IMG/VR virus record: IMGVR_UViG_3300047508_000198
Span: 1-64,000 of that record
Length of the DNA: 64,000 bases
From: a virus
Direction: 5' to 3' (one strand)
Shown: positions 1 through 33,021 of the stretch, in pieces
Numbering within the stretch: position 1 is the stretch's first letter
How the letters are laid out: each line of letters opens with the position of its first letter
Notes under the pieces: model-generated
The model's database searches: none
What the model saw: only the letters and a program-made list of their open reading frames with translations
Told to the model about the DNA's origin: nothing
Translations under genes and position numbers: made by a program

Positions 1-160
1 TTTCATATCGAGCTGACGAATGTGGACACGCCGCGGGCAGCGGTGGACAGAAATGTGCCGATATTGTGCACGACATGCGCCGCGGTGGTCGGCTCCTCGA
101 TGATGAACCAGACGATCAGGGCGATCCCGGTCCAGAACAGAAGCTGCTTGAACGTCGGCA

Positions 161-406
161 TCAGGGCGTCTCCGGAGCAGGCCGCGGGTCGGCAACCACC
201 TCATCGGTTATCGTGCGCTTGACCACCCGGTGACCCTGCGGCCGGTCTCCCTGGTCGGCCAGGGCATTCCAGCTGGCCTGGAAGCGGTCGAGCGAGGTGA
301 AGGCGGCATCCGGGATGTCCCACGGGGACAGGTCCTTCCAGCCGGAATCAGGGTTGGCCCCGGCGGGCAGGTACTGGGCCACATAGGTGACACGGGCTTT
401 AGCCAT
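161..406 (-). CDS. Hypothetical phage protein (81 aa)
   Basis: ORF overlaps the stop of the upstream gene (399); the CCTGGGAAGAA motif lies just upstream. Confidence 0.5.
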   Translation of the reverse strand: MAKARVTYVAQYLPAGANPDSGWKDLSPWDIPDAAFTSLDRFQASWNALADQGDRPQGHRVVKRTITDEVVADPRPAPETP

Positions 407-827
407 GAGGACCGAACCATTCTTCCCAGGAGTAGCCGGGGCCGGCGTCAGTCGGCTCGCTCTCGCCGTCGCCGCCAGGCGGCGGGGTCTCGTGCCTGCC
501 GCAGCCGCAGCCGGGCGAGCCCGGGTTGATCACGACGTAGACCCAGGCTTTGCGGTCATTGCGGGTCGGCCGGGTCCCGCCCGTGCGCCTGATGGACAGG
601 TCCCGGTAGTGCAGCTCGGTGAACCGGGCCGAGGCGGTCTGGTGGGACAGCCCCGTGGAAATCTCCACCTCGTCGCAGGTGGCGCCAGTCGCTCCCCGGC
701 TGTCGATGCAAGACCAGATCCGCTGGCGCTGAACCTCTCTCGTTGCGCCGGACAGGGAGGCAAAGGCCTCCTCGCTCTGCAGATCCCCGCGGTGGTAGTT
801 CCGCGTCGGGTCGAGATCATCGCTCAT
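399..827 (-). CDS. Winged-HTH-like DNA-binding protein
   Basis: RQRIWSCI...GATCDEVEISTGLSHQTASARFTEL resembles a phage wHTH; start moved to ATG 827, which overlaps the upstream stop. Confidence 0.55.
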   Translation of the reverse strand: MSDDLDPTRNYHRGDLQSEEAFASLSGATREVQRQRIWSCIDSRGATGATCDEVEISTGLSHQTASARFTELHYRDLSIRRTGGTRPTRNDRKAWVYVVINPGSPGCGCGRHETPPPGGDGESEPTDAGPGYSWEEWFGPHG

Positions 828-1128
828 GGTCATCGGGATCCGGGAAGTCGAACAGGTCCGGCACGCCTGCCAGCTCCTCCTCGATGGAGGCGGCGAACGC
901 GGCATGGTGAGCCGGGGAGCACACGGTGGCATCGCCCCATTCCTCGGTCAGCCGGTAGGGCTCGCCGCAGTAGGCGCACTTGGCCCAGGCCTCGCCGCGG
1001 TCCCGGATGCCCTTATTGATCAGGGCGTACATCACGTGCGTAGGATGCGCGCCCGGGTCGGCCAGGATCTTATCCGGGTCGTAGGGCTCCAGGTCGCCGT
1101 ACGGGTCGAACGGCTCGTCAGCCGGCAA
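817..1128 (-). CDS. Hypothetical acidic protein with CxxC motif
   Basis: TTG start with GGGGAG RBS; CAYCGEPY...CSPAHH. Confidence 0.45.
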   Translation of the reverse strand: MPADEPFDPYGDLEPYDPDKILADPGAHPTHVMYALINKGIRDRGEAWAKCAYCGEPYRLTEEWGDATVCSPAHHAAFAASIEEELAGVPDLFDFPDPDDHER

Positions 1129-1306
1129 AGTGATCGAACTCCCCGTTGCGGGCGCCATCCAGGAAGCAGTCCCACTCGTTGCGAGTGAAGCGCAGCTCCT
1201 GCTCCGGGTGCTTGCTGTCCCGCATCGCGACGCCGCCGCCCTCCAGATGCGCGACCTCGACGCAATCGCCGTCGTCCCCGCTGAGGCTGCTCTTGATCCA
1301 CTCCAT
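1118..1306 (-). CDS. DUF397 family protein
   Basis: WIKSSLS...DCVEVA...VAMRDSK.P...LRFT..EW..FL.G is the DUF397 signature; apparently leaderless after a TATATT -10. Confidence 0.85.
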   Translation of the reverse strand: MEWIKSSLSGDDGDCVEVAHLEGGGVAMRDSKHPEQELRFTRNEWDCFLDGARNGEFDHFAG

Positions 1307-1307
1307 A

Positions 1308-1556
1308 TCAAGGAATATAGCCTCGCTCCCGGGCAATGGCTACTGCCTCGCGCCGGGACGACACGCCGAGCTTGCGGTAGATCGCGTAGATGTGGGTCTT
1401 GGCCGTGTTCTGGCTGACGTGCAGCTGCTCGGCGATCTCGCGCGAGGTCATCCAGGTCGCCAGCAGCTTCATGACCTCCAGCTGGCGGGGCGACAGTTCC
1501 GGGATGTACCGGTCATGACGGATCATGCTCTTCAGGATGTTGCTCTCCCTGGTCAA
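1308..1556 (-). CDS. Stand-alone LuxR/GerE-type HTH regulator
   Basis: LSPRQLEVMKLL...TSREIAEQLHVSQNTAKTHIYAIYRKLGVSSR. Confidence 0.85.
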   Translation of the reverse strand: MTRESNILKSMIRHDRYIPELSPRQLEVMKLLATWMTSREIAEQLHVSQNTAKTHIYAIYRKLGVSSRREAVAIARERGYIP

Positions 1557-1725
1557 GGCCGGCCCGGACGATCAGCCGGACCTGCTGCCTGGCCTCGACC
1601 AGGCTAGCCGCGTCGCCCTCGTGCGGGACATCGCCGAAGGTGAACCGGTACTGCCGCTGGTCGTGGCTGTAGCTGAAGAAGAACCGGCGGCCCCCGACCC
1701 GGACGTCGTACCGGCGGCTGGCCAT
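1513..1725 (-). CDS. Hypothetical protein (70 aa)
   Basis: ATG 7 nt after a TGcTATCTT extended -10 (leaderless geometry). Confidence 0.5.
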   Translation of the reverse strand: MASRRYDVRVGGRRFFFSYSHDQRQYRFTFGDVPHEGDAASLVEARQQVRLIVRAGLDQGEQHPEEHDPS

Positions 1726-1873
1726 ATCAAGGAAGATAGCACGATACGATGGTCCTGCCAGTTACCGCGCGGGTGTCCCGAAGCCCCGCGTGCCCTGCGA
1801 TCAGCAGATCAGGAGGACCGCCTCATGTCCGGCCATGACGCCTGCCCCGCCTAGCGAGGTGAGGAGGTGAGTC

Positions 1874-2053
1874 ATGGACGGGGCCGGGCGGCCTCGCGAG
1901 ATCCCGCTCAAGCACAAGTACCGGGCCCGGAAGCCGAAGGGCAAGTTCCGGGCCGACTACATGGGCAACACCGGCATCAGCAGCGCACTGAAGCACGTGC
2001 GCCTGCCGGCGATCCACGGGATCAAGCGCAAGAAGTACCGCCGCAAGATGTGA
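1874..2053 (+). CDS. Small, highly basic protein (59 aa; not in the ORF track)
   Basis: GAGGAGGT RBS at 1861-1868; MDGAGRPREIPLKHKYRARKPKGKFRADYMGNTGISSALKHVRLPAIHGIKRKKYRRKM; followed by a hairpin. Confidence 0.6.
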   Translation: MDGAGRPREIPLKHKYRARKPKGKFRADYMGNTGISSALKHVRLPAIHGIKRKKYRRKM

Positions 2054-2060
2054 GCGCGGC

Positions 2061-2100
2061 AGGGCGCCCCGGAGCTTGGGATGGCATACCGGGGCGCTCT
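2061..2100. terminator. Hairpin between convergent genes
   Basis: AGGGCGCCCCGG (2061-2072) pairs with CCGGGGCGCTCT (2089-2100). Confidence 0.6.
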
Positions 2101-2119
2101 GTTAATCCTGCCTCAGTGA

Positions 2120-2470
2120 TCAGCTGCTCGCTTCCTTCTCAGCCTTCCTGGCTTCCTTCTCCTCGGCCTTGCGGCGCTGGGTCAGCGTCTCGCGCCCGGC
2201 CGCCTTCGCGTCCTTGTCCGCCTGCTGGATCGCGTCGGCCTCGGCCTTCACCAGCTGGTCGTAGCTCTCCTTGACCTGCTCCCGGGCCAGCTTCTCGGCC
2301 TGGAGCCGCTCGGCCTCGGCCCGCGCCTGGTCGCGCTGCTGGTCCTCGAAGGCCACCCGGGCCCGGGTCGCCTCGGCGGCCCGCTCCTCGGAGGCATCGG
2401 CCTGGCGCTCGGCCTCCTCCTGCCTCAGCTCGGCGGTCGCGTCCTTACGCAGCTGGCCCATGTCGCTCAT
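2120..2470 (-). CDS. Charged coiled-coil protein (116 aa)
   Basis: A/E/K/R/Q-rich helical sequence; GAGGAG RBS. Confidence 0.65.
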   Translation of the reverse strand: MSDMGQLRKDATAELRQEEAERQADASEERAAEATRARVAFEDQQRDQARAEAERLQAEKLAREQVKESYDQLVKAEADAIQQADKDAKAAGRETLTQRRKAEEKEARKAEKEASS

Positions 2471-2540
2471 CGTGTCTCCTCAGGTCGGTGTTTGCCTGCG
2501 GACTACCCGGGCTGCTGCGCTTCATCCCCCGGCAGCGCAG

Positions 2541-2598
2541 CACGGCGCCCCGGCTCCGCCGTCACAACAGGACTTGGCGTTCAGGCCGGGGCGCCGTG
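2541..2598 (-). terminator. Inverted repeat downstream of the secreted-protein gene
   Basis: CACGGCGCCCCGGC ... GCCGGGGCGCCGTG. Confidence 0.45.
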
Positions 2599-2615
2599 CG
2601 TGCGTAAACAGATGT

Positions 2616-3485
2616 TCACGGGCTGACGAAGCTGAAGCCTCCCACCCCGTTCCCGTTCCCGGCCGCCTTGGCGGTCCCGAAATTCAGGTTCTCCTGCGCG
2701 AACAGGTAGAGCGGCCGGCCGTGGTAAGTGACCTGGACGCCGAGCGGGGTACTGGTCAGCCCGACCTGCCCCGGGCGGGCGCCGCCGGTCACGCCCGGCC
2801 AGCTGGCGGTCAGCACGTACGGCCAGGCCCGCGCGCAGGCGCCCGTGCAGGGGCCGGAGGCGGTGTAGACCGGGAACTTGACCCAGCCCAGGAACGTGAA
2901 CATCAGCACGGCCAGGTGCCGGTGCCCGCCGATCCGGACGGTGGTCAAGGTGGCGACCCAGGGCAGCTGCCTGCCATCAGGCCGGACCAGGTTCCATACC
3001 CCGTGCGGCAGCGGGCTGGCCGGGTCGTCGAAGCCCTCACCGGTGACCTGGTTAGGCGCGTCGTCGAACATGTACAGCGGGCGCCCGGCGTAGGTGACCT
3101 GGGTGCCGACGCCCGTCCGGTGCACGGTGCCGAGCAGGTTCTGGTGCACGCCCCGCCCGGCGACGGGCGCCCCGGTGGTGGTGATGGCCGGCCAGACCGC
3201 GGTCTTGTCGTTGGACGGGCCGGTGCAGGACAGCGACATGCCGCCCAGGTGCAGGACCGTGGTCGTGCAGCCGAACGACGACGGCGAGTTGTCCGAGGTG
3301 ATGGTGTAGAGCGAGAAGCCCTTGTACTTGCCGTTGCCGACCACCAGGGCCGGGCCGAACGGGGTGCTGGCAAGGGAGATCTTGGTGCCGGTGCCGACAG
3401 AGGCCTGGGCCGCTCCCGTGCCCAGGGCGAGCAGGCCCGATACGGCCAGGGCCGCGCTCAGAGCCAATCCGATGAATCTGCGCAT
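2616..3485 (-). CDS. Secreted protein with Lipoprotein_15 (COG4315-like) repeats
   Basis: Signal peptide ending AAQA; two QVTY.GRPLY.F motifs and C.G.CA..WP. Confidence 0.8.
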   Translation of the reverse strand: MRRFIGLALSAALAVSGLLALGTGAAQASVGTGTKISLASTPFGPALVVGNGKYKGFSLYTITSDNSPSSFGCTTTVLHLGGMSLSCTGPSNDKTAVWPAITTTGAPVAGRGVHQNLLGTVHRTGVGTQVTYAGRPLYMFDDAPNQVTGEGFDDPASPLPHGVWNLVRPDGRQLPWVATLTTVRIGGHRHLAVLMFTFLGWVKFPVYTASGPCTGACARAWPYVLTASWPGVTGGARPGQVGLTSTPLGVQVTYHGRPLYLFAQENLNFGTAKAAGNGNGVGGFSFVSP

Positions 3486-3565
3486 GCGATAGTGCCCCTC
3501 CTTGTGCAGGTGTGCGTGACTCCGTGCGGTCGCGAGTCACCTATATCAAGGAAGATAGCACGAGG

Positions 3566-3757
3566 TCAGGCTGGGTCCCAGCGCTGGGCGAACCGGAGCA
3601 GGTCACGCTCGAACTTCTCGGCGGTAGCCCGGTCGGCGAACTCGAACCACCACTGCTCCCCGCAGCGGCCCTCCGGGTGATCCTTGTCCATCGGCGCGAT
3701 GCCGGACTGCTTCACCGTGTAGATGACGGGGGAGATGAACGGGTACTCGCTGCGCAT
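3566..3757 (-). CDS. Hypothetical protein (63 aa)
   Basis: Abuts the upstream stop in the lysin operon. Confidence 0.45.
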   Translation of the reverse strand: MRSEYPFISPVIYTVKQSGIAPMDKDHPEGRCGEQWWFEFADRATAEKFERDLLRFAQRWDPA

Positions 3758-4024
3758 CTAGCCCATCCAGGCGCGGCTGCGCTCGCTGGTCGGGACCTTC
3801 ACCTCGCCCGGGTGCTCGCGCTGCCACTGCACGATCTCCGCGATTCTCCCGGTCACCAGATCCTGATGGCGCTGCGGGGCGCCGCCCGTCTCGCACAGCG
3901 CCAGGTAGTAGCCCAGCATGGCCGGGACGAACGGGTCATGGCCGCGGAACACGATCACCGGCTCGTCCTCGGGGATGTCGCCGTGCTCGGTGGTCACCCG
4001 GCCGTACTTGCCGTCATAGCCCAT
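3758..4024 (-). CDS. Hypothetical phage protein (88 aa)
   Basis: Directly downstream of the lysin; IPEDEPVIVFRGHD motif. Confidence 0.6.
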   Translation of the reverse strand: MGYDGKYGRVTTEHGDIPEDEPVIVFRGHDPFVPAMLGYYLALCETGGAPQRHQDLVTGRIAEIVQWQREHPGEVKVPTSERSRAWMG

Positions 4025-4034
4025 ACCAGGGAAC

Positions 4035-4844
4035 CTACTTCACGGCAGCTGCGGTGTGCAGGTTCTGCCAGGTGACCGGGCCGACCTGCCCGTCTACCTG
4101 CAGCCGGTGTCGGCCCTGGTACTCCCGCACCGCAGCGGCCGAGGCGGGCCCGTAGATCCCGTCGGCGGCCAGTGAGTTGACCCAGGCCTCGCCCATCGTG
4201 GTGCGCCGGTAGTTCAGCCGGGCCTGCACCGCCTTGACGTCGGCACCGCGGACGAACGGGGAGGTCAGCGTGATGATCCGGCCCGGCCAGGCGGGGCCGC
4301 CCGGCTTGGCGGCCGGAGCGGCCGGAGCGGCCCCGGTCCCGGTGTACGGCACGTCGTAAAAGCCGTAGACGTAGCCCTGGTCGTTGCGGCGGTCCTTCTC
4401 CACCACCATCCCGCCGTCAGACTGCGACCCGGAGGAGGTGGCGGCCGTGTTGCCTTCCAGGGCCCGGAAGCGCTTGGGGTCGGCCGGGTCCACCCAGCTG
4501 ACCCAGCCGACGTGATCGAAGCGGTCGGCGTTGCCGGGGAAGTCGTACACCACGATGTAACCGCGCTTGGCCTCCGGCTTGAACCGGCCCTGCTTCTTGG
4601 CGTGGGCCATGACATCGCCGCAGTAGGCGAAGCCCTTCGGGGTGCGGATGCCCTCCAGCGGGCTGACGTCGCCCTGGGCACGGAACGCGGTGTAGAACCC
4701 CCACGAGATGAAGATCGCGCACCAGGGCACGGCCTGCATGCCGTACCAGGCCCCGAACTCGGTGCGGTTGGACCCGGCCGGGGACTCCTTCACCCCGAGC
4801 TTGGACTTGAAGACCGCCTCGACCTGAGCGATAGACGTAGCCAT
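4035..4844 (-). CDS. Endolysin: CHAP amidase plus peptidoglycan-binding domain
   Basis: PWCAIFISW, DHVGWV, LEGNT catalytic motifs; C-terminal DGIYGP...VREYQ...LQVDGQVGPVTW (PG_binding_1). Confidence 0.9.
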   Translation of the reverse strand: MATSIAQVEAVFKSKLGVKESPAGSNRTEFGAWYGMQAVPWCAIFISWGFYTAFRAQGDVSPLEGIRTPKGFAYCGDVMAHAKKQGRFKPEAKRGYIVVYDFPGNADRFDHVGWVSWVDPADPKRFRALEGNTAATSSGSQSDGGMVVEKDRRNDQGYVYGFYDVPYTGTGAAPAAPAAKPGGPAWPGRIITLTSPFVRGADVKAVQARLNYRRTTMGEAWVNSLAADGIYGPASAAAVREYQGRHRLQVDGQVGPVTWQNLHTAAAVK

Positions 4845-5863
4845 CAGGACTTGGTGATGGTCGCGATGCCCCTCGGGTTGAGGATCGACATGGCCACCAT
4901 CTCGTCGAAGACCCAGCCCTTCCAGAACGCCTCGACCATGTGGTTCTCCTCGACGTCCAGGCTGTAGAGCACCGGGAACACGCCGAGGAAGTTGGGCTCG
5001 GGGGTGAGGAAGATCTTGGCCTGCGGCACGATGATCGAGCGCTGGATCTGGAACTCGCCGAAGCTGGTGATGGTCTCGCCCGCGACGATCCGGTCCTTGA
5101 ACGCCCAGCCCGTCTGGTTGATGTCCCAGCGGTACATGTCGCGGAAGTCGAACGGGTTGATCATCAGCCGGGCGCTGGGCAGCTCGTGCAGGTCGGTCAT
5201 CGCGACCGCGCTGTAGAGCGAGCCCGGGGTGAGGTAGCCCGAGGCCTCGGTGATGTTGTGGTTCGGGGTGACCACGTGGTCCGGCCGGGTCGCGTAGTCC
5301 GTCACGGCCGCCTGCAGGATGACGAGCAGCCGCGCGTCCTCCTGCTTCAGGATGGCCTGCTTGGTCTCGTCCTGGGCCTGCTCGACCGCGTTGATCCGGA
5401 GGTAGAACAGGTCCTCCTTGCGGATCGCGGGGCGGGAGGCGATCCGGAAGAACCGCACCGGGATGCGCTTGCCCTCGAAGGGAGTCACGCGGACTTCGCC
5501 CTCAGTGCCGCTCAGGATGTAGGCCTGGCCGAGGTCGTCCCAGACGTCGTATTCAACGGGTGTGCCAGGAGTAACCGGGTCCTCGACCAGGACGTTGCGG
5601 GTGATGCCCTGATAGCGCAGCTTCAGCTGGATCGGGCCGACCATGCCCACGCCGAGGCGGCGGAAGCCGTGCAGCTCATCGGAGAGGATGAGCGCCATCT
5701 TGCGGACCTTGGCCTCGCGGGTGAGCGGCGCGGAGCGCGCCCGCCGGGCCTCAATCTGCGCTACGTAGTCGTCGCTCTTGCGCGAGGCGACGCGGGGCCG
5801 CAGGCCGCCGAGCGGCGCTGCCGGGGCCAGCTGGCCTGGGGCCACGGTGGCAAGCTCGGTCAT
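4844..5863 (-). CDS. Major capsid protein (Bxz1/cluster C-like)
   Basis: GPIQLKLRYQGITRNVLVED...YDVWDDLGQAY...VTPFEGKR...FRIAS resembles the cluster C capsid protein as recalled; sits downstream of the protease and decoration genes. Confidence 0.9.
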   Translation of the reverse strand: MTELATVAPGQLAPAAPLGGLRPRVASRKSDDYVAQIEARRARSAPLTREAKVRKMALILSDELHGFRRLGVGMVGPIQLKLRYQGITRNVLVEDPVTPGTPVEYDVWDDLGQAYILSGTEGEVRVTPFEGKRIPVRFFRIASRPAIRKEDLFYLRINAVEQAQDETKQAILKQEDARLLVILQAAVTDYATRPDHVVTPNHNITEASGYLTPGSLYSAVAMTDLHELPSARLMINPFDFRDMYRWDINQTGWAFKDRIVAGETITSFGEFQIQRSIIVPQAKIFLTPEPNFLGVFPVLYSLDVEENHMVEAFWKGWVFDEMVAMSILNPRGIATITKS

Positions 5864-5893
5864 GGGGTGGTCCTTTCCTGCGTACCCGTTGGG

Positions 5894-6547
5894 CTAGTTC
5901 CGGCTGATGCCGTACTGGGCTGCGTCATACGGAGACAGCCCGCCGATCGTGATCTTGGTGCTGGAGTTGACCTTCAGCAGCTTGGCCATCGGGGCCGAGA
6001 TCGAGGTGCTGGACTGCCACGGCACCAGCTGGCCCTGCAGCGTCCCGGCCTGGAGACCGGTGCCGACACCGGTCTGGGTGGCCACGCCGATCAGCGCCGA
6101 GCCGCCGCCGTCGGTCGGGTCGGTCCAGGTGGACGTGGGGTCGAAGGCGGGCGCGAGGATCTCGAACTCGGCGTCGGGGCCCATCACCCACACGGCAAAG
6201 GCGTTGATGCCCGCGTACAGCAGCTCGTCAATGCCGTCGCCGCCGACGTAGAGCGCGCCGAGCCCGTAGATGGACAGCGCCGCCGCGGTGTAGGTCGAGC
6301 CGTTGTTGGCCGCGCCCGCGGCACCGCCGGCACCGGTCATCACGGCGCCGTTCATCTGCACGCCGTTGGCCCCGGCCAGGGTCACCAGGTCACCGCCCGT
6401 GCGGATGAAGCCCATGCCCGGCCAGATCGGCACCGCCCGGGTCCAGTTCGGGTCCAGGAACACCGGCTTGGGAGTTGCCTGCGTCCACACGAAGAGGGGA
6501 CGGATGGTGCGCTTGATGTAATCGTTGCTGAGGTAAGTACGAATCAC
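5894..6547 (-). CDS. Capsid decoration/minor head protein
   Basis: KRTIRPLF...QATP..FLDP.W motif resembles the cluster C gene upstream of the capsid gene; synteny. Confidence 0.7.
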   Translation of the reverse strand: MIRTYLSNDYIKRTIRPLFVWTQATPKPVFLDPNWTRAVPIWPGMGFIRTGGDLVTLAGANGVQMNGAVMTGAGGAAGAANNGSTYTAAALSIYGLGALYVGGDGIDELLYAGINAFAVWVMGPDAEFEILAPAFDPTSTWTDPTDGGGSALIGVATQTGVGTGLQAGTLQGQLVPWQSSTSISAPMAKLLKVNSSTKITIGGLSPYDAAQYGISRN

Positions 6548-6673
6548 GGTCCCAGCACTCCTTCGCCTCGTCCTGCCTCTTCCGGGGCCGACCCGCGCGG
6601 GGCAAGCCCTCTGACTCTTCTGGGGGGAGGCTTAAAGGTCAGGTTGAGGGTGAGACTCAGCCAGGAGCGAACG

Positions 6674-7015
6674 TCAGGGAGTCACGACGTCCGAGGCGAA
6701 CAGCGCGGCCTTCGCGGCCGGGCTGATCGTGGAGTACTGGGCGTCGGACAGCACCACCACGGCGCTGGGGCCGTAGCGCAGCCCGTTGGGCAGCACGACA
6801 TCCTTGACGGTGCTCTTCAGCGTGATGGTGCGGGACACGTTCCCTCCTCCTGCGGTGTGCACCCCGGGGGCGGTGAGCAGCGTCGAGATGGCACGCGGGG
6901 TCAGCTGGCCGTACTCGTCATCGGTCAGCGTGACCACGGCCCCGGCCTGGTACCGGCTGCCGTTCGGCAGGCAGACATCCCGCTTCCCGGCGGCGATCGT
7001 CACTGCGTACGTCAT
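6674..7015 (-). CDS. Small virion-type protein with an internal duplication
   Basis: Two copies of DV.LPNG.RY...AVV.L.D..Y. Confidence 0.65.
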   Translation of the reverse strand: MTYAVTIAAGKRDVCLPNGSRYQAGAVVTLTDDEYGQLTPRAISTLLTAPGVHTAGGGNVSRTITLKSTVKDVVLPNGLRYGPSAVVVLSDAQYSTISPAAKAALFASDVVTP

Positions 7016-7029
7016 GTGCTATCTTCCTT
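7016..7029 (+). promoter_or_regulatory. Candidate extended -10 promoter for array 1
   Basis: GTGCTATCTTCCTT, identical to the 14-mer upstream of minus-strand genes at 1729-1742 and 3548-3561; points into the array. Confidence 0.55.
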
Positions 7030-7034
7030 AGTCA

Positions 7035-7868
7035 GAGTCATGGCCCGGCACGGCATGGCTCGCCTTTGGTGGCTCGGCGGTCACGGCAGCGCCCAGCGCG
7101 GATTGCATAGCGTGGCTTGGCCCGGCGAGGCAGTCAGGGACAGGCAGGGTCAGGCGAGGACGGGCCTGGCGGAGCACAGCGAGGCAAGGCAGTCCAGGCC
7201 CGGCTTGGGACGGAAAGGCTAGGCGTGGCTCGGCAAGGCCTGGCGCAGCCCGGCCCGGCTCGGCAGTCATGGCGAGGAATTGGCACGGCACGGCTAGGCG
7301 TGGCGTGGCAAGGCGTGGCCAGGCAGTCAGTGCTCGGCTGCTCTGGGCGTAGCTCGGAATGGCGACGCACAGCGGGGCTGTCAGGGAAGGGCGCGGCTCG
7401 GCAAAGGGGGCATAGCTCGGCGGCACATGGCCGTCGCGGTATTGCGTGGACGGCGAGGCGGCGCTGGGCGAGGCAGTCGCAGCATGTCCTGGACCGCGGG
7501 GCGGTGCGGCGCGCGGCTTGGCGGCGCGGCGCACGGCCTGGCACGGCAGTCGTGTCAAGGCCGGGCGGGTCACGGCAAGCCATGGCGAGGCCGGCTCGGC
7601 GAGGCCCGGCAAGGCCTGCGAGGGCGAGGCGCGGCCTGGCACGGCCGTCGAGGATTGGCTGGGTGCAGCTCGTCTCAGCACGGCATGGCGCGGGATGGCT
7701 TGGCAGTCAGCGCTGGGCATCGGCACGGGCAGCGTGGTCAGGCTGTCATCACGCGGCGTGGCTTGGCGAGGCGGGTCGGGTCTTGGCGAGGACCGGCATG
7801 GCTCGGCAGTCGTCGCAAGGCAAGGCTGCTCATGGCATGGCCTGGCCGGGCAGGCACAGGAGGCGGTC
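7035..7868 (+). repeat. GGC-NN pentamer array 1 (candidate guide-RNA array, about 14 units)
   Basis: 5-nt periodic GGCNN with GGC[ACGT]GTC separators at about 7076, 7129, 7188, 7262, 7322, 7376, 7429, 7472, 7545, 7643, 7702, 7741, 7805, 7862. Confidence 0.85.
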
Positions 7869-7893
7869 TCCATCGGGGGCACCGCCTCCTTTG
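7858..7893 (+). terminator. Hairpin closing array 1 (possibly bidirectional)
   Basis: AGGAGGCGGT (7858-7867) pairs with ACCGCCTCCT (7881-7890), followed by TT. Confidence 0.65.
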
Positions 7894-7903
7894 CCGTCCG
7901 GGC

Positions 7904-10900
7904 CTAGTCGAACAGGTCCCCGTCGTCATCCGGGCCGCCCAGCCCGGCCGTCATCGCCATCACCGGGGCGGGCTCGCCGGAGAAGCTCGGGGCCGCCCGC
8001 GAGGCGGTCCTGGGCGCCATGGTCCGCGGGTACCGGGGCTGCGCCTGGCTGACCGCGGCGGCCTTGGTCACCTGGCCCAGCGTGCCGATCTCGCGCTCGA
8101 TGTCGTGCAGGCTCAGGGACGCGTCCCGCTCGATCATCGTGGCCAGCTCCAGCTCATCGCCGCGGACCAGGCCCGCGGTGACCCGCAGCTTGGCCAGCCG
8201 GATGGCGGCGAAGGTCCGGGCGCCGCGCTCGTCCTCGGGGGACTGCGGGCCGCTGAGCTGCTGCCGGGCCGCGATCGTCCACGGGAACGCCGTGCCGTCA
8301 TTGCCCGCGCCGCCGATGCCGGGGCCCTGCGCGGCCAGCGGGTTCGGGTTGACCCGCACGTCGGTCTCGATCCGGCGCTGCTCGATCGGCACGCCGCCGT
8401 CCTGGGACGGGTTGGTGCCCTGGACCGGCGCGGTGACGTCCTGCAGGTTGGTGGCCGGAGCGGTCGGGATCTCCACCCCGGGGGTGAGCGCCGTGGTGGT
8501 CGCCTCGGCCGGCACGGCGGTCATCGAGCCGGGCGTGGCGCCGGGACGGGCCGGGTCGTCCTCGGTGTGCCCGGGGCCGCGGGCCAGGCCGTTACCGCTG
8601 CCGGTGGGGGCGCCGCTGGCCAGGGCCTCCTCGGTCGTCTGGCTCGGCGGGGCCTGCGGCGGGTCGTCCACCGGCTGGGCCGGGTTGGCCAGGTCGGCCT
8701 GGCGCAGGATCTGGTCCAGCTCCTCGGTGACGCCCGCCAGCGAGGCGATGAAGCTGAGCCCGGCCGAGAGCTTCGCGTTCTCACGGCGCAGCTCGTCGAT
8801 AACGCGCTGCTGCGCGGTCACGGCCGCCGTCGCGGCAGTGCGCTGCTTGGTCATCTTCTTGCCTCCGGGGCGCTCGTCCTCGTCCTGATCCTTCCCGGGG
8901 GAGCCGCCGAAGCCGGGCTCTTCCTCCTCGGCCTCCTGCATCTCCTGGCCGCCCTCGGCGCCCTGCTCTTCGAGCTGCTCGCCCTCGGCCTGCTCCTCGG
9001 CGCCTTCCTCTTCCAGCTCCTCGCCTTCGAGCTGCGCCTCCTCGGGGTCCTCCTCGCCCGGCTCGGCCAGCTCCTCCTCGTCGCCCGTGGGCTCCAGCAT
9101 CCCCTGGCCGGGGGCGGTGGCATCGGGCTGCACGCCGGGCACCCCGTCGGGGGCGATCTGGTCCGGGTGGAACAGCTGCTCGTCGGCGTCCTCGCCGGAG
9201 CCAATCGGCTCCTGGGGGTTCATGCCGGGCTCGGCGCCGGGGATCAGCTGCTCCTCATCGGCCGGGCCCTCCGGGTACGGCGAGGTCTCCTTGCCCTCCT
9301 CCAGCTCCTGGCGCATCATCTTGGCGTGCTCGATGTCCGGGTCGCGGAAGATGTCCGGCGGCGCGACGAAGCCGCACACCGGGCAGCGCTGGCCCTTGAA
9401 GACGTCCTGGTCCCCGCACACCGGGCAGGCCTCCGGCCGCAGCGTGTCCACCGACGGCGGGACCCGCAGCGGCGGGTCCGCAGCGGTGTGCTGGAGCGAG
9501 GCGTGCATGGTCTGGCCTTCCATCTCGGGGTGGTACTTGCGGACGTGCTCTTCCCAGCGCTTCTGGTCGTTGATGCCCTTCTGGACCCGGCCGCCGCCGC
9601 CGAAGGCGTTCTTGACCGATGAGTCCTCGGCGTCGTTGACCCGGATCTGCCGCAGCCAGGTGGTCGCCTGCATGCGCTCGGGGGTGACCTTCTGGCCGGT
9701 CTCGGCGGAGACCTCATCCGCGGCGTCGAAGTACTTCTGCGCGATGTGGTTGTAGTAGTGCTGCTTGTCGATGGGGGCGCTGACGGCCTCCTTGTCGGTC
9801 AGCCGCTTGCCGGCCGCCACGCTCATCGCGTGCCGGTCGATGACGACCTGGCGGTTACCGGACTCGGTGTCCTCGTCGGTGTTGCCGCCGTGCTCGATCA
9901 GGTGGGCGAATGCCCGCGTCTTCGGCCCGTTCAGGACCTGGGAGTGGTGCTCGCCGGCCAGGATGCGCCGGGCCGGGTTGGTGTGCATGTCCATGATCGG
10001 GCCGTCGCCCGTGCTGTGGTTCAGGGCCCGGCCCTCGTGGAACGAGCGCGCAGCGTGGAACATGTTGGCCGGCCACTTGGTCCGCGGCGAATAGGCCGAC
10101 AGCAGCCCGGCACCCATCGCCGCGTCGCCGCCCGCGATGCCCTTGGCCACCAGGTGCGCGTCCGGGTACCAGTTCTTGCCCTGGGTCTTCTCGTCGTCGG
10201 TGGAGTCGTACCAGGCGGCCTTGATGTTGTCCTTGCTCACCGGGTTGGCCTGGAACCACGGGTGATCGGCCGCGTCCTTGTAGCGCGGGCCGGCCGCCTC
10301 GCGCCGGGTCAGCTCGCCGGGCAGCAGCGCGGTCTTCTGCTTGGCGAACTTCCCGGTCGCGATCAGCATGGAGTTCTGGCCCCGCGTCTCGGTGGTCATC
10401 GCGTGCCTCGCAGGTCCGCTGAACATCCGGGAGTGCGCCAGCCAGGCGGCCTCCTCGCCGTGCCGGTCGAAGGACCGGCCGGTAGCGGCGTGGCCGAAGG
10501 CGTCGTGCACGGCCCGGAACTTGTCGTTGGTCTCGTCGTCGAAGAACGTGTGCGGGCCGGTGGCGCGGGTGGACAGCACGGCCAGGTGCCGGTTCCTGGC
10601 CAGGTCCTGGGTCATCTCCAGGTGGTTGGCGTACGGGTCGTGGTCGACGGCCTCGACGTGCACGCCCATCGCGCCGGTCAGGTGGTCGTACTGGTGGTGC
10701 ACCTGACGGGCCATGTCGGCGAAGGCGGCGTGCGCGCCCGGGTCGTTCATCGGCAACGCGTGGTAGGCCTGCGCGAGGCGCCGGATCCGGCCGGGGTTCG
10801 TCTCGATGTGGCTGTACTGCTCGGCGTGCGGGTCCGGCAGGCCGATCTTGGCGGCGTAGGAGCGGGCCCCCTCCTGGGCGGCGCGCACCGGGCTGACGGC

Positions 10901-13900
10901 CGGGTCGCCCGGGTGATGCAGCCGGTCCTCGATGATGTCCAGCGCCGCGGTGCGCCCGTGACCCAGCCACCGGCCGCAGGCCACGTGGTGGCAGCCGGAC
11001 TGGCTGTACAGGTTGTCGGCGTCGGCCGCCTCCTGGCTCCAGCCGGCCGCCGCGGTGACCTCGATCCAGGGCGCGGTGCCGACGTGGACGCGGGCGCCCT
11101 GGCGGCGCTGCTTCCAGCGCTGGATCCGCTCGTTGCCGCCGTTGGTCCAGTGCTGGCTCTCCACGTGCTGGCGCATCCCCTGCGGGTCGTCGTGCCAGGC
11201 CTTCAGGTGCTTGCCCAGCTCGATGTCATCGAAGTGCTCCGGCACCCGGTCCTGGTCATCGCCGATGTGGATGGAGTCGTGCGAGAGGTCGCCGGTCGCC
11301 CGGTGGTAGACATCCATCCGCGGGCCGCCGTAGTGCTTGACGTACCAGCCCGAGCCCTTGCCGTTCGCCAGCGCGTGCTCGCGCTCGTAGTAGGGCGCGC
11401 CGCCCTCCTCGTCGGAGTCGAACTTGATGTGGCCCCGGCCGCCCGCGTACCGGCCCATCAGCTCCGAGCCCCGCCGGGTGTTCTCCTCGGACTGGCGGCT
11501 CTCCTCGGTGCCGCCCGGGTCCAGGACCTCCGCGCCGCCGCTCCAGATCTTGTCGGCCAGGGACCGGCCGAGGTCCTTGGACTGCTGGCGCCGGTCGATG
11601 TAGTCACGGGACCGCTCGGCCCGCAGCTGGGTCTCGTGCCCGCGCCAGCTCGGCCCCGGGGCGTGCCGCCCGGCGTTGTCGACGACATGGAAGTGGCCGG
11701 TCTCCGGGTGCTTGACCACCTCGTACGGGCCGTGCCACTCGTCCTCCGGGCTGTAGCCCTCCGGCTTGTGCACCCGGGCGTCCGGCCGGGCGACCCGCTC
11801 GGTGTCCTGCGGGTCGATGCGCGAGTGCGGGAAGGCAGGCGTGCGCTCCCTCGCCAGGTCAGTGAACCGCGGTTCCTCTTCGGTCCCGATCCGGTGCGCG
11901 TCCGGGCCCGCAGACTCCAGGTGATGCCACAGCTTGTAAGCCTGGTCCTCCCCGTAGGACCCGTCGTGCTCGGGGTTGCCGAAGTGGCCGTGCATCGGGT
12001 TGGCATCACGGCCGCTGGCGTCAACCACGTGGACCTGGCGGGTCTGCGGGTGCCGGATGACGTGGTAGGGCCCGTGGTAGCTCAGGCCGCGGTACCAGCT
12101 GTGCGGCTCCCGGGTCATCATGTTGTGCTCCAGCTCGGGCCCCACCGGGCTGCGGCCCGGCTGCGGCTCGGCCCAGACCTGGTGGCCCTCGGGGGCCTCG
12201 GCCCCGGTGATGGCCTGGCGGCGGACGCCGTGGCGCTCGCGCCAGCGCTCCTCCTCCGCGTCGTCTTCGTCCTTCAGGAACTGGTAGTGCGGGTGGTCCG
12301 GCCAGTGCTCGGTGTTGCCGCATTCCTCGGCGTGGCAGTACAGCGGGCGCACGTGCTCGCCCACCTGCATCGGGTGCGCCGAGCGCCAGGAGTTCTTCTC
12401 GGTGTCGGCGTACTCCAGGTCGGGCTCGACCGGGCCTGAGGGATGAACCCGGTAGACCCGCGACGGGTAGGCCTGATCCTCGTTCTCGCCAGGCCCCTGC
12501 CGCTGCTCGCGGCCCAGGTCGTGCGCCCGCCGGCTGGCCCCCGAGGAGTCCGCGCGCTCGCCCCAGCGGTGCGCCTCGGCCGGGTCGGTGGTGGCGTGCA
12601 CGTACGGGGCGGCGTGGATGTCGAAGTTGTTCGGGTCCTCCGCGGCCTGCTCGTGCGTCAGCATCTCGCCGGGGCGCAGGACCGAGCGGGTGCCATGGTA
12701 GAGCGGCTGACCCGTGCCGAAGTGGTGCTTACCGGAGTAGTCGGTGTCGGAGAAGCTGCGCCGCCGCGGGGCGCGCGGCGCCCGCGGGGCGAACGGGTTG
12801 CGGTGGCTGCACTGCTCGGAGATATGCGGCAGCTCCTTGCGGTCCTCGCCGAAGTAGCCCCACTCCATCAGCGAGTTGCCGGCGCTGCGGACGTGCTTGG
12901 CCGGGACCACCGTGCTCCAGATGTGCGCCCGGTCAGGGTGGTTGGGGCCCTTCCAGTTCCGCTCGCTGGTGTTGTTGACCGACCGGGCTTCCTGCTCGGC
13001 GTAGGACCGGTTCAGCGTCACCCAGTCACCGTGGTTGATCTCGCCCTTCTTGGCGTTGCGGCTCTCCGGGTTCTGCGCCGGGGCGGCCCGGTAGATGCGG
13101 ACCTTCTTCTCCGGGTTGCCGCGGGCCCGGCGGATGTCGTTCAGGTGCTTGTAGCCATGCTCCCCGCCGGAGTCGTCGTACTCGTGGATCCGCTCGTAGA
13201 TGTCCTTGGGCCAGTCCCCGCTGCCCATGTCGTGCAGCGGGTCGCCCTCCTCCATCGGCTGCATCTCCATCTGGTAGTCAGCCGGGTTGCCCGCCTCGTG
13301 CACGGACGCGAAGTGCTCCAGCAGGCCGAGCGGCGTAAAGGCGGGTTCACGCCGGGCCGCGGTCACCTGGTGCAGGTAGGGCTTGTCGAGCACGTGCGCC
13401 GTCGGGTCGGCCGGGTCCTCCACCAGGAAGCTGTTCTCGAAGAACGTCAGCCCGGCGCAGATCTCGTGGATGAGGCTCTCACGGACCTTGCCGTCGGCGC
13501 CGCGCTTGCGGAACTTCATGCCCTTCTTGCCGGGCATGTGCTGGCAGTACTCGGCCGGGCTGGTGGCCTTGTTGCCGCACGCCGAGCAGGTCGAGTACTC
13601 GCAGTCCACGCCCATCGAGGTGCGGTTGACCCGGCCCTCCAGGATGGCCTTCGCGAGCTTGGGGAAGCGCTGGGCGTCGATCTCGTGCAGCAGCTCGACC
13701 CAGGTGTCCGGGCTGCCGTCCGGGTTGCGGTCGTGGTGCATCGCCGCGGCGACGATGACGCCCCGGGCCCGGCGGTGGTTGGCGTTGTGGTGGTTGATGA
13801 AGGCCGGCTTGCCGAGGAAGGTCTTGTAGCCCTTCTCGATCTCCTCGGCCGGGAACGTGTCCCAGTTGTCGTTCGTCCGGCTGCTGATCGCCCTAGCCCG

Positions 13901-14035
13901 GACGTACAGGTACCCGGGCCGCGGGGTGTAGGCGAAGGAAACACGGTGCGCCGCTTTCCTCAACGCCCGCGCAGAGTTTCCCGCCGGTACGCGCCAGGCA
14001 TCGAGCACCTGCGCATTCGCGAACTTGCGAATCAC
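7904..14035 (-). CDS. Capsid maturation protease/scaffold polyprotein with inserted enzymatic modules (2043 aa)
   Basis: N-terminal cluster C-like protease (RAISSRTNDNWDTF...FINHHN...TSMGVDCEYSTCSACG...FFENSFLVEDPADP); internal Arr-like and other modules; acidic scaffold-like C-terminus; GGGAGG RBS. Confidence 0.8.
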   Translation of the reverse strand: MIRKFANAQVLDAWRVPAGNSARALRKAAHRVSFAYTPRPGYLYVRARAISSRTNDNWDTFPAEEIEKGYKTFLGKPAFINHHNANHRRARGVIVAAAMHHDRNPDGSPDTWVELLHEIDAQRFPKLAKAILEGRVNRTSMGVDCEYSTCSACGNKATSPAEYCQHMPGKKGMKFRKRGADGKVRESLIHEICAGLTFFENSFLVEDPADPTAHVLDKPYLHQVTAARREPAFTPLGLLEHFASVHEAGNPADYQMEMQPMEEGDPLHDMGSGDWPKDIYERIHEYDDSGGEHGYKHLNDIRRARGNPEKKVRIYRAAPAQNPESRNAKKGEINHGDWVTLNRSYAEQEARSVNNTSERNWKGPNHPDRAHIWSTVVPAKHVRSAGNSLMEWGYFGEDRKELPHISEQCSHRNPFAPRAPRAPRRRSFSDTDYSGKHHFGTGQPLYHGTRSVLRPGEMLTHEQAAEDPNNFDIHAAPYVHATTDPAEAHRWGERADSSGASRRAHDLGREQRQGPGENEDQAYPSRVYRVHPSGPVEPDLEYADTEKNSWRSAHPMQVGEHVRPLYCHAEECGNTEHWPDHPHYQFLKDEDDAEEERWRERHGVRRQAITGAEAPEGHQVWAEPQPGRSPVGPELEHNMMTREPHSWYRGLSYHGPYHVIRHPQTRQVHVVDASGRDANPMHGHFGNPEHDGSYGEDQAYKLWHHLESAGPDAHRIGTEEEPRFTDLARERTPAFPHSRIDPQDTERVARPDARVHKPEGYSPEDEWHGPYEVVKHPETGHFHVVDNAGRHAPGPSWRGHETQLRAERSRDYIDRRQQSKDLGRSLADKIWSGGAEVLDPGGTEESRQSEENTRRGSELMGRYAGGRGHIKFDSDEEGGAPYYEREHALANGKGSGWYVKHYGGPRMDVYHRATGDLSHDSIHIGDDQDRVPEHFDDIELGKHLKAWHDDPQGMRQHVESQHWTNGGNERIQRWKQRRQGARVHVGTAPWIEVTAAAGWSQEAADADNLYSQSGCHHVACGRWLGHGRTAALDIIEDRLHHPGDPAVSPVRAAQEGARSYAAKIGLPDPHAEQYSHIETNPGRIRRLAQAYHALPMNDPGAHAAFADMARQVHHQYDHLTGAMGVHVEAVDHDPYANHLEMTQDLARNRHLAVLSTRATGPHTFFDDETNDKFRAVHDAFGHAATGRSFDRHGEEAAWLAHSRMFSGPARHAMTTETRGQNSMLIATGKFAKQKTALLPGELTRREAAGPRYKDAADHPWFQANPVSKDNIKAAWYDSTDDEKTQGKNWYPDAHLVAKGIAGGDAAMGAGLLSAYSPRTKWPANMFHAARSFHEGRALNHSTGDGPIMDMHTNPARRILAGEHHSQVLNGPKTRAFAHLIEHGGNTDEDTESGNRQVVIDRHAMSVAAGKRLTDKEAVSAPIDKQHYYNHIAQKYFDAADEVSAETGQKVTPERMQATTWLRQIRVNDAEDSSVKNAFGGGGRVQKGINDQKRWEEHVRKYHPEMEGQTMHASLQHTAADPPLRVPPSVDTLRPEACPVCGDQDVFKGQRCPVCGFVAPPDIFRDPDIEHAKMMRQELEEGKETSPYPEGPADEEQLIPGAEPGMNPQEPIGSGEDADEQLFHPDQIAPDGVPGVQPDATAPGQGMLEPTGDEEELAEPGEEDPEEAQLEGEELEEEGAEEQAEGEQLEEQGAEGGQEMQEAEEEEPGFGGSPGKDQDEDERPGGKKMTKQRTAATAAVTAQQRVIDELRRENAKLSAGLSFIASLAGVTEELDQILRQADLANPAQPVDDPPQAPPSQTTEEALASGAPTGSGNGLARGPGHTEDDPARPGATPGSMTAVPAEATTTALTPGVEIPTAPATNLQDVTAPVQGTNPSQDGGVPIEQRRIETDVRVNPNPLAAQGPGIGGAGNDGTAFPWTIAARQQLSGPQSPEDERGARTFAAIRLAKLRVTAGLVRGDELELATMIERDASLSLHDIEREIGTLGQVTKAAAVSQAQPRYPRTMAPRTASRAAPSFSGEPAPVMAMTAGLGGPDDDGDLFD

Positions 14036-14305
14036 GGAGCACTACCTCCCGGCTGAACAGCGCCTGCCGCGCCTTCCCTCCTTCCCGGGGCGGTCCCGGG
14101 TCGGCAAAGGTCGCGCCGCGCCCGTCCGGGCCGCAACGATGGAAGTGCCGGATCTTGTGCCGCCAGGCACTATGGCCGGGCCAGGCGCAGCCGCACGGGA
14201 TGATCTCCGCGTCGCACCAGATACAATCCATCGCCTCTTACCCCTGAACCCGATCTCCGCTAGCCTGAGTCGGTTCGGCTCGACCCGACTATGGGGAGGA
14301 TTTTC

Positions 14306-14644
14306 ATGAAGGCCAGGATCTACGCGCTGATCGCCACGGTCGGCATCCTGCTCGGCTCGCTCGCACTCACCGCCGGGACGGCATCCGCCTCGGTGACCGA
14401 CCACAATCCGCAGCCCGTGCAGACCCGGTTCAGCGACGGCAACCCCCGCGCGGACCTGTTCGTCGTCCCCCGGCAGCGGGACCGGGACCGGCGCTTCTTC
14501 TGCACCCGCGAGGACCGGCGGCTGGAGTTCTGGCTGCTCCGCCAGCGGCACCTGGACCGCTTCCAGCGCGCCGAGCTGCGGTTCCTGGAGCGGATCTGCG
14601 ACGACGATTTCCTGTTCGTGTCGCCGTTCTCGTTCCCGCGGTAA
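14306..14644 (+). CDS. Small secreted protein
   Basis: GGAGGA RBS; signal peptide MKARIYALIATVGILLGSLALTAGTASA. Confidence 0.6.
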   Translation: MKARIYALIATVGILLGSLALTAGTASASVTDHNPQPVQTRFSDGNPRADLFVVPRQRDRDRRFFCTREDRRLEFWLLRQRHLDRFQRAELRFLERICDDDFLFVSPFSFPR

Positions 14645-14678
14645 CCCGCATCCGGCTGGCCGAGGGCCCGGCAGCGCC

Positions 14679-14870
14679 TCAGGGCGCGGCCGGGCTCTCG
14701 CCACGTGCGAACGCCATGACCTCGCCCTCGCGGAAGCGGCTGTGCCCGCCTGGTGTCCGGATCCGGGTGAGCTTGCCGGCCTGGGCCCACCGGGTCACGG
14801 TCTTCGGGTCGACCCGGAACAACGCAGCGACTTCACCGGGGGTCATGAGGCGCTCACTATTGCTGTCCAT
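14679..14870 (-). CDS. bldC: BldC-family MerR-like developmental regulator
   Basis: LMTPGEVAALFRVDPKTVTRWAQAGKLTRIRTPGGHSRFREGEV closely matches Streptomyces BldC. Confidence 0.85.
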   Translation of the reverse strand: MDSNSERLMTPGEVAALFRVDPKTVTRWAQAGKLTRIRTPGGHSRFREGEVMAFARGESPAAP

Positions 14871-14912
14871 GAAATATAGAGTGTCAAATACAGACAGAAC
14901 AGACAAGAGGGC

Positions 14913-15179
14913 TCAGCCGGGGATCTTCCACCCAACCGGCAGGATGTCCCGCAGGGTGTCGCGCACGATCTGCTGGTCATCGCCGGTCAGCATCAGGCCG
15001 TAGGCCTCGCAGACCTCCGCGGCCGACTGCTCCCGGCCGCCGCGCCAGGCCGCGCGAACGATCTCGGCCAGCATCGCCGGGAAGGCGGCGTCCAGCGGCG
15101 GCCCGTGCGACCAGGCGTCCCGCGCCGCCTGGCGCAGGACATCCATGGCCGCTTCCTCGAACTGCTGACGGCTCTTCAT
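14913..15179 (-). CDS. Hypothetical protein (88 aa)
   Basis: GGAAGG RBS; continues the operon. Confidence 0.5.
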   Translation of the reverse strand: MKSRQQFEEAAMDVLRQAARDAWSHGPPLDAAFPAMLAEIVRAAWRGGREQSAAEVCEAYGLMLTGDDQQIVRDTLRDILPVGWKIPG

Positions 15180-15366
15180 GGGCCTTCCGGGCGGGTCTTG
15201 TCCTGGACCGTCCAGATGGCGTCCATCAGCGCCCAGAATACCGGGCAGGAGTCGCTCGCCAGGTCCAGGCCGCCGACGCCGGGAGGGCCGGCGATGTAGT
15301 TGCGCCAGTGCCGCCAGCCCTCCCGCACGACGGTGATCCGGTAGCCCCGGTAGCCGAGCTTGAACT

Positions 15367-16017
15367 TCACGACGCCACGCCCTTGTGCGGGCCGGGGCCG
15401 ACGCGGTTGCGGATCGACTCCTCGTCGGTCAGCGCACGGCCGCACAGGGTGCACTTGCCGTAGATCTTCATCTCCGGGGTGATCTCCAGCTTGCGGCTGT
15501 ACTCGATGGCCTGCGCCTCGGTCATCCGCTCGTCCTCGCGCAGGTAGGCGACCATGCCGCTCGCGATGACCCACTCGCCCTTGTCCAGGTCGAGCCGCTT
15601 GGCGTACAGGTGGCCGGAGCCGTAGATGGCCCGGACGACCTTGTACATCCGGCCCTCGTGCAGGAAGAACCCGGCCTCGGCAGGACGGTCGGCCTCGGGC
15701 ACGCGCTGAACGCGGGCCGGGGCGGCCGGGCGGAGATCGCCGCTGGCGGGCATGCCACCAGCCTTGGCGGCCGGGCTGATCCCGGCAACCGCCGCGTTCT
15801 GGGACGCCCAGGCCCGCTGCTCGAACTCGTTTACCTGCGCGGCCACGGCCGGGTCGACCGGCTGGCGGGCCAGGTAGTCGCGCAGCGCCAGGGCGGACTT
15901 GGGGGTCATCGTCTCGGGGTGCGCCAGCTGGCGGGCGCTGACCCGGTGGATCCGGGTGCGGGCCAGGTAGGTGATCTCCCGGACCAGCGGGGTCATGTCG
16001 TCGGTGGTCATGGTCAT
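15367..16017 (-). CDS. DUF6011-like zinc-ribbon protein
   Basis: C-terminal GKCTLCGRALTDEESI...GP; own promoter upstream. Confidence 0.7.
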   Translation of the reverse strand: MTMTTDDMTPLVREITYLARTRIHRVSARQLAHPETMTPKSALALRDYLARQPVDPAVAAQVNEFEQRAWASQNAAVAGISPAAKAGGMPASGDLRPAAPARVQRVPEADRPAEAGFFLHEGRMYKVVRAIYGSGHLYAKRLDLDKGEWVIASGMVAYLREDERMTEAQAIEYSRKLEITPEMKIYGKCTLCGRALTDEESIRNRVGPGPHKGVAS

Positions 16018-16058
16018 CAGTGCCTCTGGATCTTCTCGTCGGTGCCTGGTACCATCCC

Positions 16059-16087
16059 ATCGTATCAAGGTTTATAGATAACTGCAA
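16059..16087 (-). promoter_or_regulatory. SigA-type promoter with operator in the spacer
   Basis: TTGCAG-17 nt (TTATCTATAAACCTTGA)-TACGAT on the minus strand. Confidence 0.7.
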
Positions 16088-16100
16088 AGGGCGGCAGCGC

Positions 16101-16307
16101 ATGACCTGCGAGCTGACTGAGGCAGAACTGATCATCCGGGCACGGTGCGGGGAGTGCTGGGCCGAGCCCGGCTGGCCCTGCGACCGGACGGTGTTCACCG
16201 GAGGGTGGATCACCGTCGGTAGGAGCCGGTTCCACCAGCTGCGGGTGGAGCGGGCCGACCGCAAGCTAGGCGGGCTGCTCGCCGCCGTACTGGGCGAACT
16301 GACTTAG
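16101..16307 (+). CDS. Small zinc-finger-like protein
   Basis: CGECWAEPGWPC...FH..R motif. Confidence 0.45.
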   Translation: MTCELTEAELIIRARCGECWAEPGWPCDRTVFTGGWITVGRSRFHQLRVERADRKLGGLLAAVLGELT

Positions 16308-27366: not shown

Positions 27367-27392
27367 CCCGCGGCACGGCGCGGTCGCCGGGT

Positions 27393-28958: not shown

Positions 28959-28968
28959 CTATCTAAGT

Positions 28969-33020: not shown

Positions 33021-33021
33021 G

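Follow-up and report, generated by a model that had tools for sequence, protein, structure and literature searches.

A probable detached vrRNA array of a VIPR system lies antisense in the head operon of a high-GC phage

The DNA analysed here, called the window, is the first 64 kb of a viral record of 84,944 bp with 70% G+C and a CheckV completeness of 53%. Because complete relatives measure about 162 kb, the record corresponds to about half a genome. At the junction between the gene for a head protease fusion and the next head gene, the plus strand reads GGC every five bases, with a strong 5-nt periodicity of the form GGC-NN (array 1 in Table 1). Counts of GGC pairs with 5-nt spacing reach 29 and 25 per 500 nt at 7001-8000, compared with a window median of 1. 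The remaining periodicity peaks of the window are GCC arrays only, at 27.4-29.0 kb and 43.4-45.5 kb (arrays 2 and 3), and a further short GCC tract (plus-strand reading) is found near 84.6 kb of the record. An earlier note on this DNA had described array 1 as lying on the plus strand, opposite to arrays 2 and 3 and to the flanking genes, and strand mapping bears this out. Very large multi-domain proteins are encoded in the virion region at 7904-14035, 21931-26847 and 55781-61054; the first of these, the 2043-aa protein, combines a head protease N-terminus with a ParB-C-like segment, a weak Arr-like segment and DUF7178.

Table 1. Features of the array 1 junction, of the other arrays and vipr genes of the window, and of VIPR arrays in deposited phages (for the latter, positions are those of the locus named by its L number).
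Feature	Position	Strand	Remarks
Genes flanking array 1		all -	head protease fusion, 113-aa gene, cement protein, major capsid protein, endolysin
113-aa gene	6674-7015	-	next head gene after array 1
Promoter-like 14-mer GTGCTATCTTCCTT	7016-7029	+	extended -10 box TGCTATCTT at 7017-7025; predicted start near 7032
Open frame, 284 codons	7028-7882	-	gene-sense strand; fills the whole gap
vrRNA array 1	7030-7860	+	about 13 staggered guide units of GGC-NN pentamers
Array 1, shared-G positions	7080, 7133, 7192, 7266, 7326, 7380, 7433, 7476, 7549, 7647, 7706, 7745, 7809
Array 1, cleanest units	7133-7192, 7192-7266, 7647-7706, 7745-7809		12, 15, 12 and 13 pentamers, respectively
Perfect 10-bp hairpin AGGAGGCGGT / ACCGCCTCCT	7861-7892		candidate terminator, possibly two-way
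2043-aa head protease fusion	7904-14035	-	upstream gene of the array 1 junction
Array 2	27367-28974	-	second detached array, directly after the portal gene; headed by GTGCTATAAACT
Array 3	43441-45510	-	vipr-adjacent vrRNA array; 31 loose boundaries
Candidate vap (vipr-accessory) gene, 158 aa	45510-45986	-	overlaps the vipr end; phrog_15946
vipr gene, 330-aa RAMP protein	45964-46956	-	phrog_4652 match
Array in Quico (L001)	2960-3215
Array in Donkeykong (L002)	2910-3260
Array in ODay (L004)	6610-6790
Array in Pipp (L005)	6650-6890
Two arrays in cyanophage Cy-LDV1 (L006)	6610-6810, 7400-7570		flanking a 194-aa gene

Within array 1 the unit boundary is GGCNG/TC, where the terminal G is shared with the GTC of the next unit. 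The loose form GGCNGTC occurs 14 times in 7030-7900 and delimits 13 segments of 39-98 nt, in agreement with the approximately 14 GGC-NN units first counted. The strict form GGCAGTC is found 8 times in array 1, out of 10 plus-strand copies in the whole record; on the minus strand, 31 of the 38 copies fall within the other arrays. Six of the 13 spacings are 5n-1, such that neighbouring units share one G. The other seven depart from this rule, which indicates register shifts in several units, possibly decayed ones. The fraction of GGY in phase is 0.79, comparable in pentamer quality to arrays 2 and 3 (0.80 and 0.74). Runs of constant register are 9-14 units long, and the NN positions vary from unit to unit. 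Units abut with no tail between them, and neither a 3' tail nor a pseudoknot is seen. Rfam (at gathering thresholds) and tRNA scans of the window gave no match, nor did megablast of window positions 1-20000 against phage records. A TRAP-like ring binder, a G-quadruplex or R-loop element and a Rho site were considered and dropped, since the VIPR papers explain the array grammar; the variable unit length also argues against a fixed TRAP-like ring.

VIPR (Viral Interference Programmable Repeat) is the subject of three bioRxiv preprints of 2026 and has been described mainly in elements of E. coli and Pseudomonas, where the guides lie beside vipr. It is presented there as a CRISPR-like RNA-guided DNA silencer of phages, in which the protein Vipr polymerises on vrRNAs composed of GGY-NN pentamers (bioRxiv 10.64898/2026.04.26.720920). 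The NN pairs read double-stranded DNA with every third base skipped, and binding silences rival phages and satellites (bioRxiv 10.64898/2026.04.26.720920, 10.64898/2026.04.26.720927). As far as the accessible text of the first of these describes it, a guide consists of 9-16 tandem GGY-NN (YNNGG) pentamers, units of 'staggered arrays' overlap by one nucleotide at a spacing of 5n-1 (legend to fig. S18), natural targets follow a 1-nt skip rule with at least 80% of NN positions matched, and the systems do not target themselves (bioRxiv 10.64898/2026.04.26.720920).

The record encodes a Vipr RAMP protein. A Cas7-like gene had been placed about 38 kb from array 1, and the measured distance is 38,071 nt. 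A profile built from 60 homologues matches one solved structure, PDB 36pp_D, 'SUSP1 Vipr protein' (E 5.4e-7). The AF2 model of the 330-aa protein (pLDDT 82.9) has Csm3/Cas7 chains as its best Foldseek matches (E 1.4e-6 to 2e-4, probability 1.00), and an invariant glycine-rich loop, G217...G221.G223-E-W-R-P-E, is present. Profile match, model and loop agree with a Vipr protein, which is characterised as a minimal RAMP with an RRM core, a glycine-rich loop and a thumb. The 158-aa candidate vap product has no match to a Pfam family or domain, and its family, phrog_15946, also follows the vipr homologue in mycobacteriophage Quico. In cluster F mycobacteriophages (Quico, Donkeykong and others) the phrog_4652 and phrog_15946 pair flanks GGC-NN arrays, and arrays of this kind have phrog_4652 homologues beside them in ODay and Pipp, both Gordonia phages, and in cyanophage Cy-LDV1. 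In deposited phage genomes such VIPR modules are annotated solely as hypothetical proteins, and the vrRNA array itself has been annotated as a protein-coding gene (Donkeykong gene 48, Pipp gene 43).

The GGY-NN grammar, the encoded Vipr and the published system together identify array 1 as a vrRNA array. Its pentamers share the unit boundary GGCAG/TC with the arrays that lie beside vipr and on the vipr strand. The VIPR system is already in print, and array 1 is a variant layout of it. Like published systems, the record combines GGY-NN guides, a RAMP protein related to SUSP1 Vipr and a small candidate accessory gene; like published staggered arrays, array 1 has units that abut with a one-base overlap (5n-1) and has no match in the phage's own DNA. 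Units of type II VIPR have a conserved, structured 3' tail that array 1 lacks, and it fits the staggered architecture as the accessible text describes it (bioRxiv 10.64898/2026.04.26.720920). Unlike published VIPR arrays, it lies within the head operon, 38 kb away from vipr and opposite to it in strand, and has a promoter-like box and a hairpin of its own.

How unusual this layout is can be judged from 80 other IMG/VR vipr loci, examined with up to 10 kb of flank. An adjacent same-strand array is present in 79 of them, and 104 of their 105 arrays lie on the vipr coding strand, which makes a detached, opposite-strand array in a late operon atypical. Array 3 has the usual position next to vipr and on its strand; array 1 has neither. 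The sole opposite-strand array of the 105 is found in L156 (7446-7513), 2.5 kb upstream of vipr. The same strand count, along with the published GGY/NN vrRNAs, supports the earlier suggestion that the GGC strand is probably the transcribed one.

The 14-mer at the GGC-strand 5' end of array 1 contains an extended -10 box. A scan for GTGCTATCTTCCTT that tolerates up to 2 mismatches finds exactly 3 matches, where 0.07 are expected and 0 of 100 shuffles reach 3. The identical 14-mers that had been listed at 1729 and 3548 do exist as exact copies; both are on the minus strand, a point left unstated at the time, and are oriented in promoter-like fashion toward minus-strand starts (ATG 1725 and GTG 3540). 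With its flanks the identity extends to a 21-nt motif on the minus strand (window 1726-1746 and 3545-3565), 7 nt upstream of ATG 1725 and 12 nt upstream of GTG 3540. The 7-nt distance suggests that the gene starting at ATG 1725 may be leaderless. A related sequence, TGCTATGGTTCCTTGATA, occurs at 55779-55796, about 30 nt upstream of another minus-strand start, and it and the 14-mer copies look like a small phage promoter family.

The reverse complement of the 14-mer, AAGGAAGATAGCAC, is the Shine-Dalgarno region of the minus-strand 113-aa gene, and the caveat that the two overlap, already raised in the earlier note, stands within this window. In a different reading of the locus, array 1 is a VIPR array by descent, a promoterless passenger or decaying copy read only antisense (as GCC-NN) in the head operon, with the 14-mer serving as a ribosome-binding site and the hairpin belonging to the upstream gene. 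The 14-mer does abut the ATG of the 113-aa gene, a consensus scanner found no sigma-70 -35/-10 promoter in 5800-9000, and the seven off-register spacings would suit a decaying copy. Against this, the box outlives the overlap in relatives. Four further distinct relative arrays, L009 (identical to L011), L014, L015 and L021, retain a TGCTAnnnT box at the 5' end of the GGC strand, where TGCTA-nnn-T is followed by CCTTGATA and the inner hexamer varies (TATCTT, TAGAAT, TAGGTT). The next gene in L014 and L015 comes with a separate Shine-Dalgarno sequence, GAAGGAGG, further on, so that there the box is not a ribosome-binding site. Array 2 likewise starts behind a similar box, which overlaps the portal stop codon. 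Conservation in relatives and the box at array 2 support the proposal that the extended -10 box is the putative promoter of array 1.

At the other end, the perfect 10-bp hairpin that had been seen to close array 1 is the core of a longer stem (about 24 pairs, 7846-7901). Folding of the 61-nt stretch 7845-7905 yields -45.7 kcal/mol (z = -5.7), a stability that 0 of 200 shuffles attain. Two base pairs of the hairpin are altered on both sides in L014 and L015, as compensatory changes, and in L021 a hairpin of different sequence takes its place. The same scanner called no T-tailed terminator in 5800-9000, as the hairpin has no T-run. Lacking a free U-run and lying 11 nt past the stop codon of the 2043-aa gene, it may serve that upstream gene instead, as the passenger reading holds. 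The compensatory changes support its proposed role as a terminator, and it could equally end the transcript of the upstream gene. The passenger reading also has to accommodate a pentamer quality equal to that of the vipr-adjacent array and an antisense orientation kept in relatives (below), and it is judged unlikely.

The relatives compared are IMG/VR loci, 80 found through the cement protein and one through the 113-aa protein. In fourteen of these an array is present upstream of the genes for the 113-aa and cement proteins; their cement identity is 78% or more in every case, and in 14 of 14 GCC is on the gene-sense strand, i.e., the antisense orientation is kept. Among loci with cement identity of 73% or less, no array was called at this head-gene junction; only three short GCC clusters are present (L052, L081, L084), all downstream of the cement gene. 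A comparison of related phages for presence or absence of the array had been recommended, and it is informative. Counting loci with both anchor genes (L083, with a poor anchor, was set aside), the junction spans 547-833 nt in the 11 that bear an array, -1 to 178 nt in the 19 that lack one and 888 nt in the window. Array 1 has been inserted between head genes that adjoin tightly in array-less relatives, and expansion only where an array is present supports the idea that arrays can be placed at new loci. Two complete relatives of about 162 kb that have no array also have no vipr and no tract of six GGCNN (a positive control was run). Exact blocks of at least 20 nt shared between array 1 and L009 add up to only 230 of 889 nt, while the flanking genes are 89-93% identical, which argues that array units turn over quickly. 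The record of L023 (G003), a 45-kb fragment estimated as 28% complete, has the junction array together with further arrays on both strands, at 32979-34999 (+), 37234-37324 (-) and 41311-41650 (-), and no vipr within its 45 kb. Taken with the boxes and hairpins of relatives, these comparisons lend indirect support to the earlier view of array 1 as a putative self-contained antisense transcription unit.

The complement of array 1 is open in one frame. Stops per frame on the gene-sense strand number 0, 11 and 6, and an in-frame ATG (7873) lies inside the hairpin behind AAAGGAGG, a strong Shine-Dalgarno sequence. The TAA stop is 12 nt before the start of the next gene, at its ribosome-binding site. 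Shuffling of pentamer blocks leaves the frame open in 0.3-1.2% of trials and shuffling of segment order in 0.6%, and in arrays 2 and 3 none of 2,006 windows of 836 nt is open. The minus-strand frame (7028 to 7873 or 7882) might then encode a functional product, or act as a translated spacer that prevents polarity of C-rich antisense RNA on the capsid genes, with a pentamer grammar shared with a guide array on the opposite strand. The product is low-complexity, rich in Pro, Ala and Cys, and has no Pfam or PHROG match. A 10-nt indel relative to L009 shifts the frame and leaves the hairpin-loop ATG out of frame there, GGCAGG stands in place of the Shine-Dalgarno-like AGGAGG in L014 and L015, and composition alone predicts an open frame in L009, L014, L015 and L021 (P 0.28-0.68). 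A conserved minus-strand protein was accordingly downgraded, since the start is not kept in relatives and no family is matched; a translated spacer or chance ranks above a real protein. As an account of the locus the frame is improbable.

Searches for targets of the array 1 guides covered the record itself, 89 loci and the 80 vipr loci under skip rules 0-3, and no guide did better than shuffled guides. With skip 3 each guide matched only its own locus, a trivial self-match that serves as a positive control for the scanner; with the contiguous code (skip 0) no target was found in the own genome or the loci scanned. Nor did the neighbouring gene of sister phages provide a target in the 81 related head loci. 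Four exact 10-unit patterns had 0 matches in viral_contigs. One exact 9-unit pattern had 6 metagenome and 4 genome matches with flanks at chance level (19-21 of 30 in total), so that exact 9-10-unit guide patterns gave no target beyond chance in three public collections. There is no sign of self-targeting: the best own-genome matches cover 0.62-0.81 of NN positions, within the range of 50 shuffled guides except for one. That one, the mini-array guide A4r1, reached 16 where the null maximum was 15, a difference without significance across 29 guides. A 9-unit guide of array 3 (window 45300) matches L174 1520-1545 at 17 of 18 NN positions under the 1-nt skip rule; about 0.4 such matches are expected over 58 guide-by-rule tests (our own estimate), and it was rejected as a chance match.

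The lack of targets in the own genome and the loci scanned is what a promoterless passenger would give. A further notion is that array 1 acts as DNA, as a decoy or landing pad for the VIPR complex of another element or as a protein-binding repeat. Some published vrRNAs target vrRNA loci of other phages, as stated in section 8 of the accessible text (bioRxiv 10.64898/2026.10.15.759431), and a DNA site, being indifferent to orientation, would explain the flipped strand. Yet the conserved promoter-like box and the hairpin lie exactly at the array ends, the unit grammar is the same as that of transcribed-type arrays, and no guide of the record matches array 1 beyond the trivial skip 3 self-match. 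A role at the DNA level is very improbable.

The reading preferred here, with a probability of roughly 0.62, is that array 1 belongs to this phage's VIPR system as a detached vrRNA array, with its own promoter and terminator, whose guides are loaded in trans. Host RNA polymerase would start from TGCTATCTT and read the GGC strand against the head operon, producing a precursor of about 830 nt that would end at the hairpin. The precursor would be cut at GGCAG/TC boundaries to yield about 13 vrRNAs of 40-100 nt. Vipr, encoded 38 kb away, would coat each GGC, presenting the NN pairs, and the loaded complex would bind double-stranded DNA with NNxNNx... and silence rival mobile DNA, as published for SUSP1. 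A more speculative extension, to which little probability is given, treats the antisense layout as a timing device. Early firing of the extended -10 box would make guides; late transcription of the head operon would then sweep across the promoter, where the next head gene has its ribosome-binding site and start, and occlude it, and the complementary RNA would silence the guides. The stop-free complement would be a translated spacer, with ribosomes crossing 836 nt of C-rich RNA and sparing the capsid genes polarity.

Orphan CRISPR arrays and phage-borne mini-arrays are guide arrays that occur apart from effector genes and act in trans. Like orphan CRISPR arrays, array 1 is apart from its effector gene, and units are gained and lost between relatives. 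Unlike CRISPR arrays, it has no repeat-spacer structure, the guide being the NN of each pentamer.

Closer counterparts exist within VIPR itself, namely the 'solo' vrRNAs reported on satellites and vipr-null phages in the accessible text of a later preprint (bioRxiv 10.64898/2026.10.15.759431). Array 1 resembles the solo vrRNAs of F5 satellites and vipr-null SUSP1-like phages in having no adjacent vipr or vap, such that Vipr is expected to be supplied in trans; the suggestion in the earlier note that arrays may act in trans would fit these solos. The published solos, as that text has them, consist of 1-2 vrRNAs with a type II tail in vipr-lacking elements of Enterobacteriaceae, and all 7 uses of 'orphan' in it concern satellites or vipr-null phages (bioRxiv 10.64898/2026.10.15.759431). 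The words 'orphan', 'distal' and 'in trans' are absent from the accessible text of bioRxiv 10.64898/2026.04.26.720920. Array 1, encoded away from the vipr-vap operon as solos are, differs from them in size, with about 13 staggered units, and in its carrier, a high-GC phage with a vipr of its own.

The known VIPR mechanism is unchanged by array 1. What is added is a vipr-positive actinophage that spreads guide arrays over its genome as separate units, with one detached array inserted backwards into a late structural operon and a recognisable promoter-like box common to the detached arrays. This yields an annotation rule for such arrays, which several deposited genomes now label as hypothetical proteins. 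Presence and absence among relatives makes the junction a natural case of array mobility, and the antisense placement offers a way to test how guide expression fares against late transcription.
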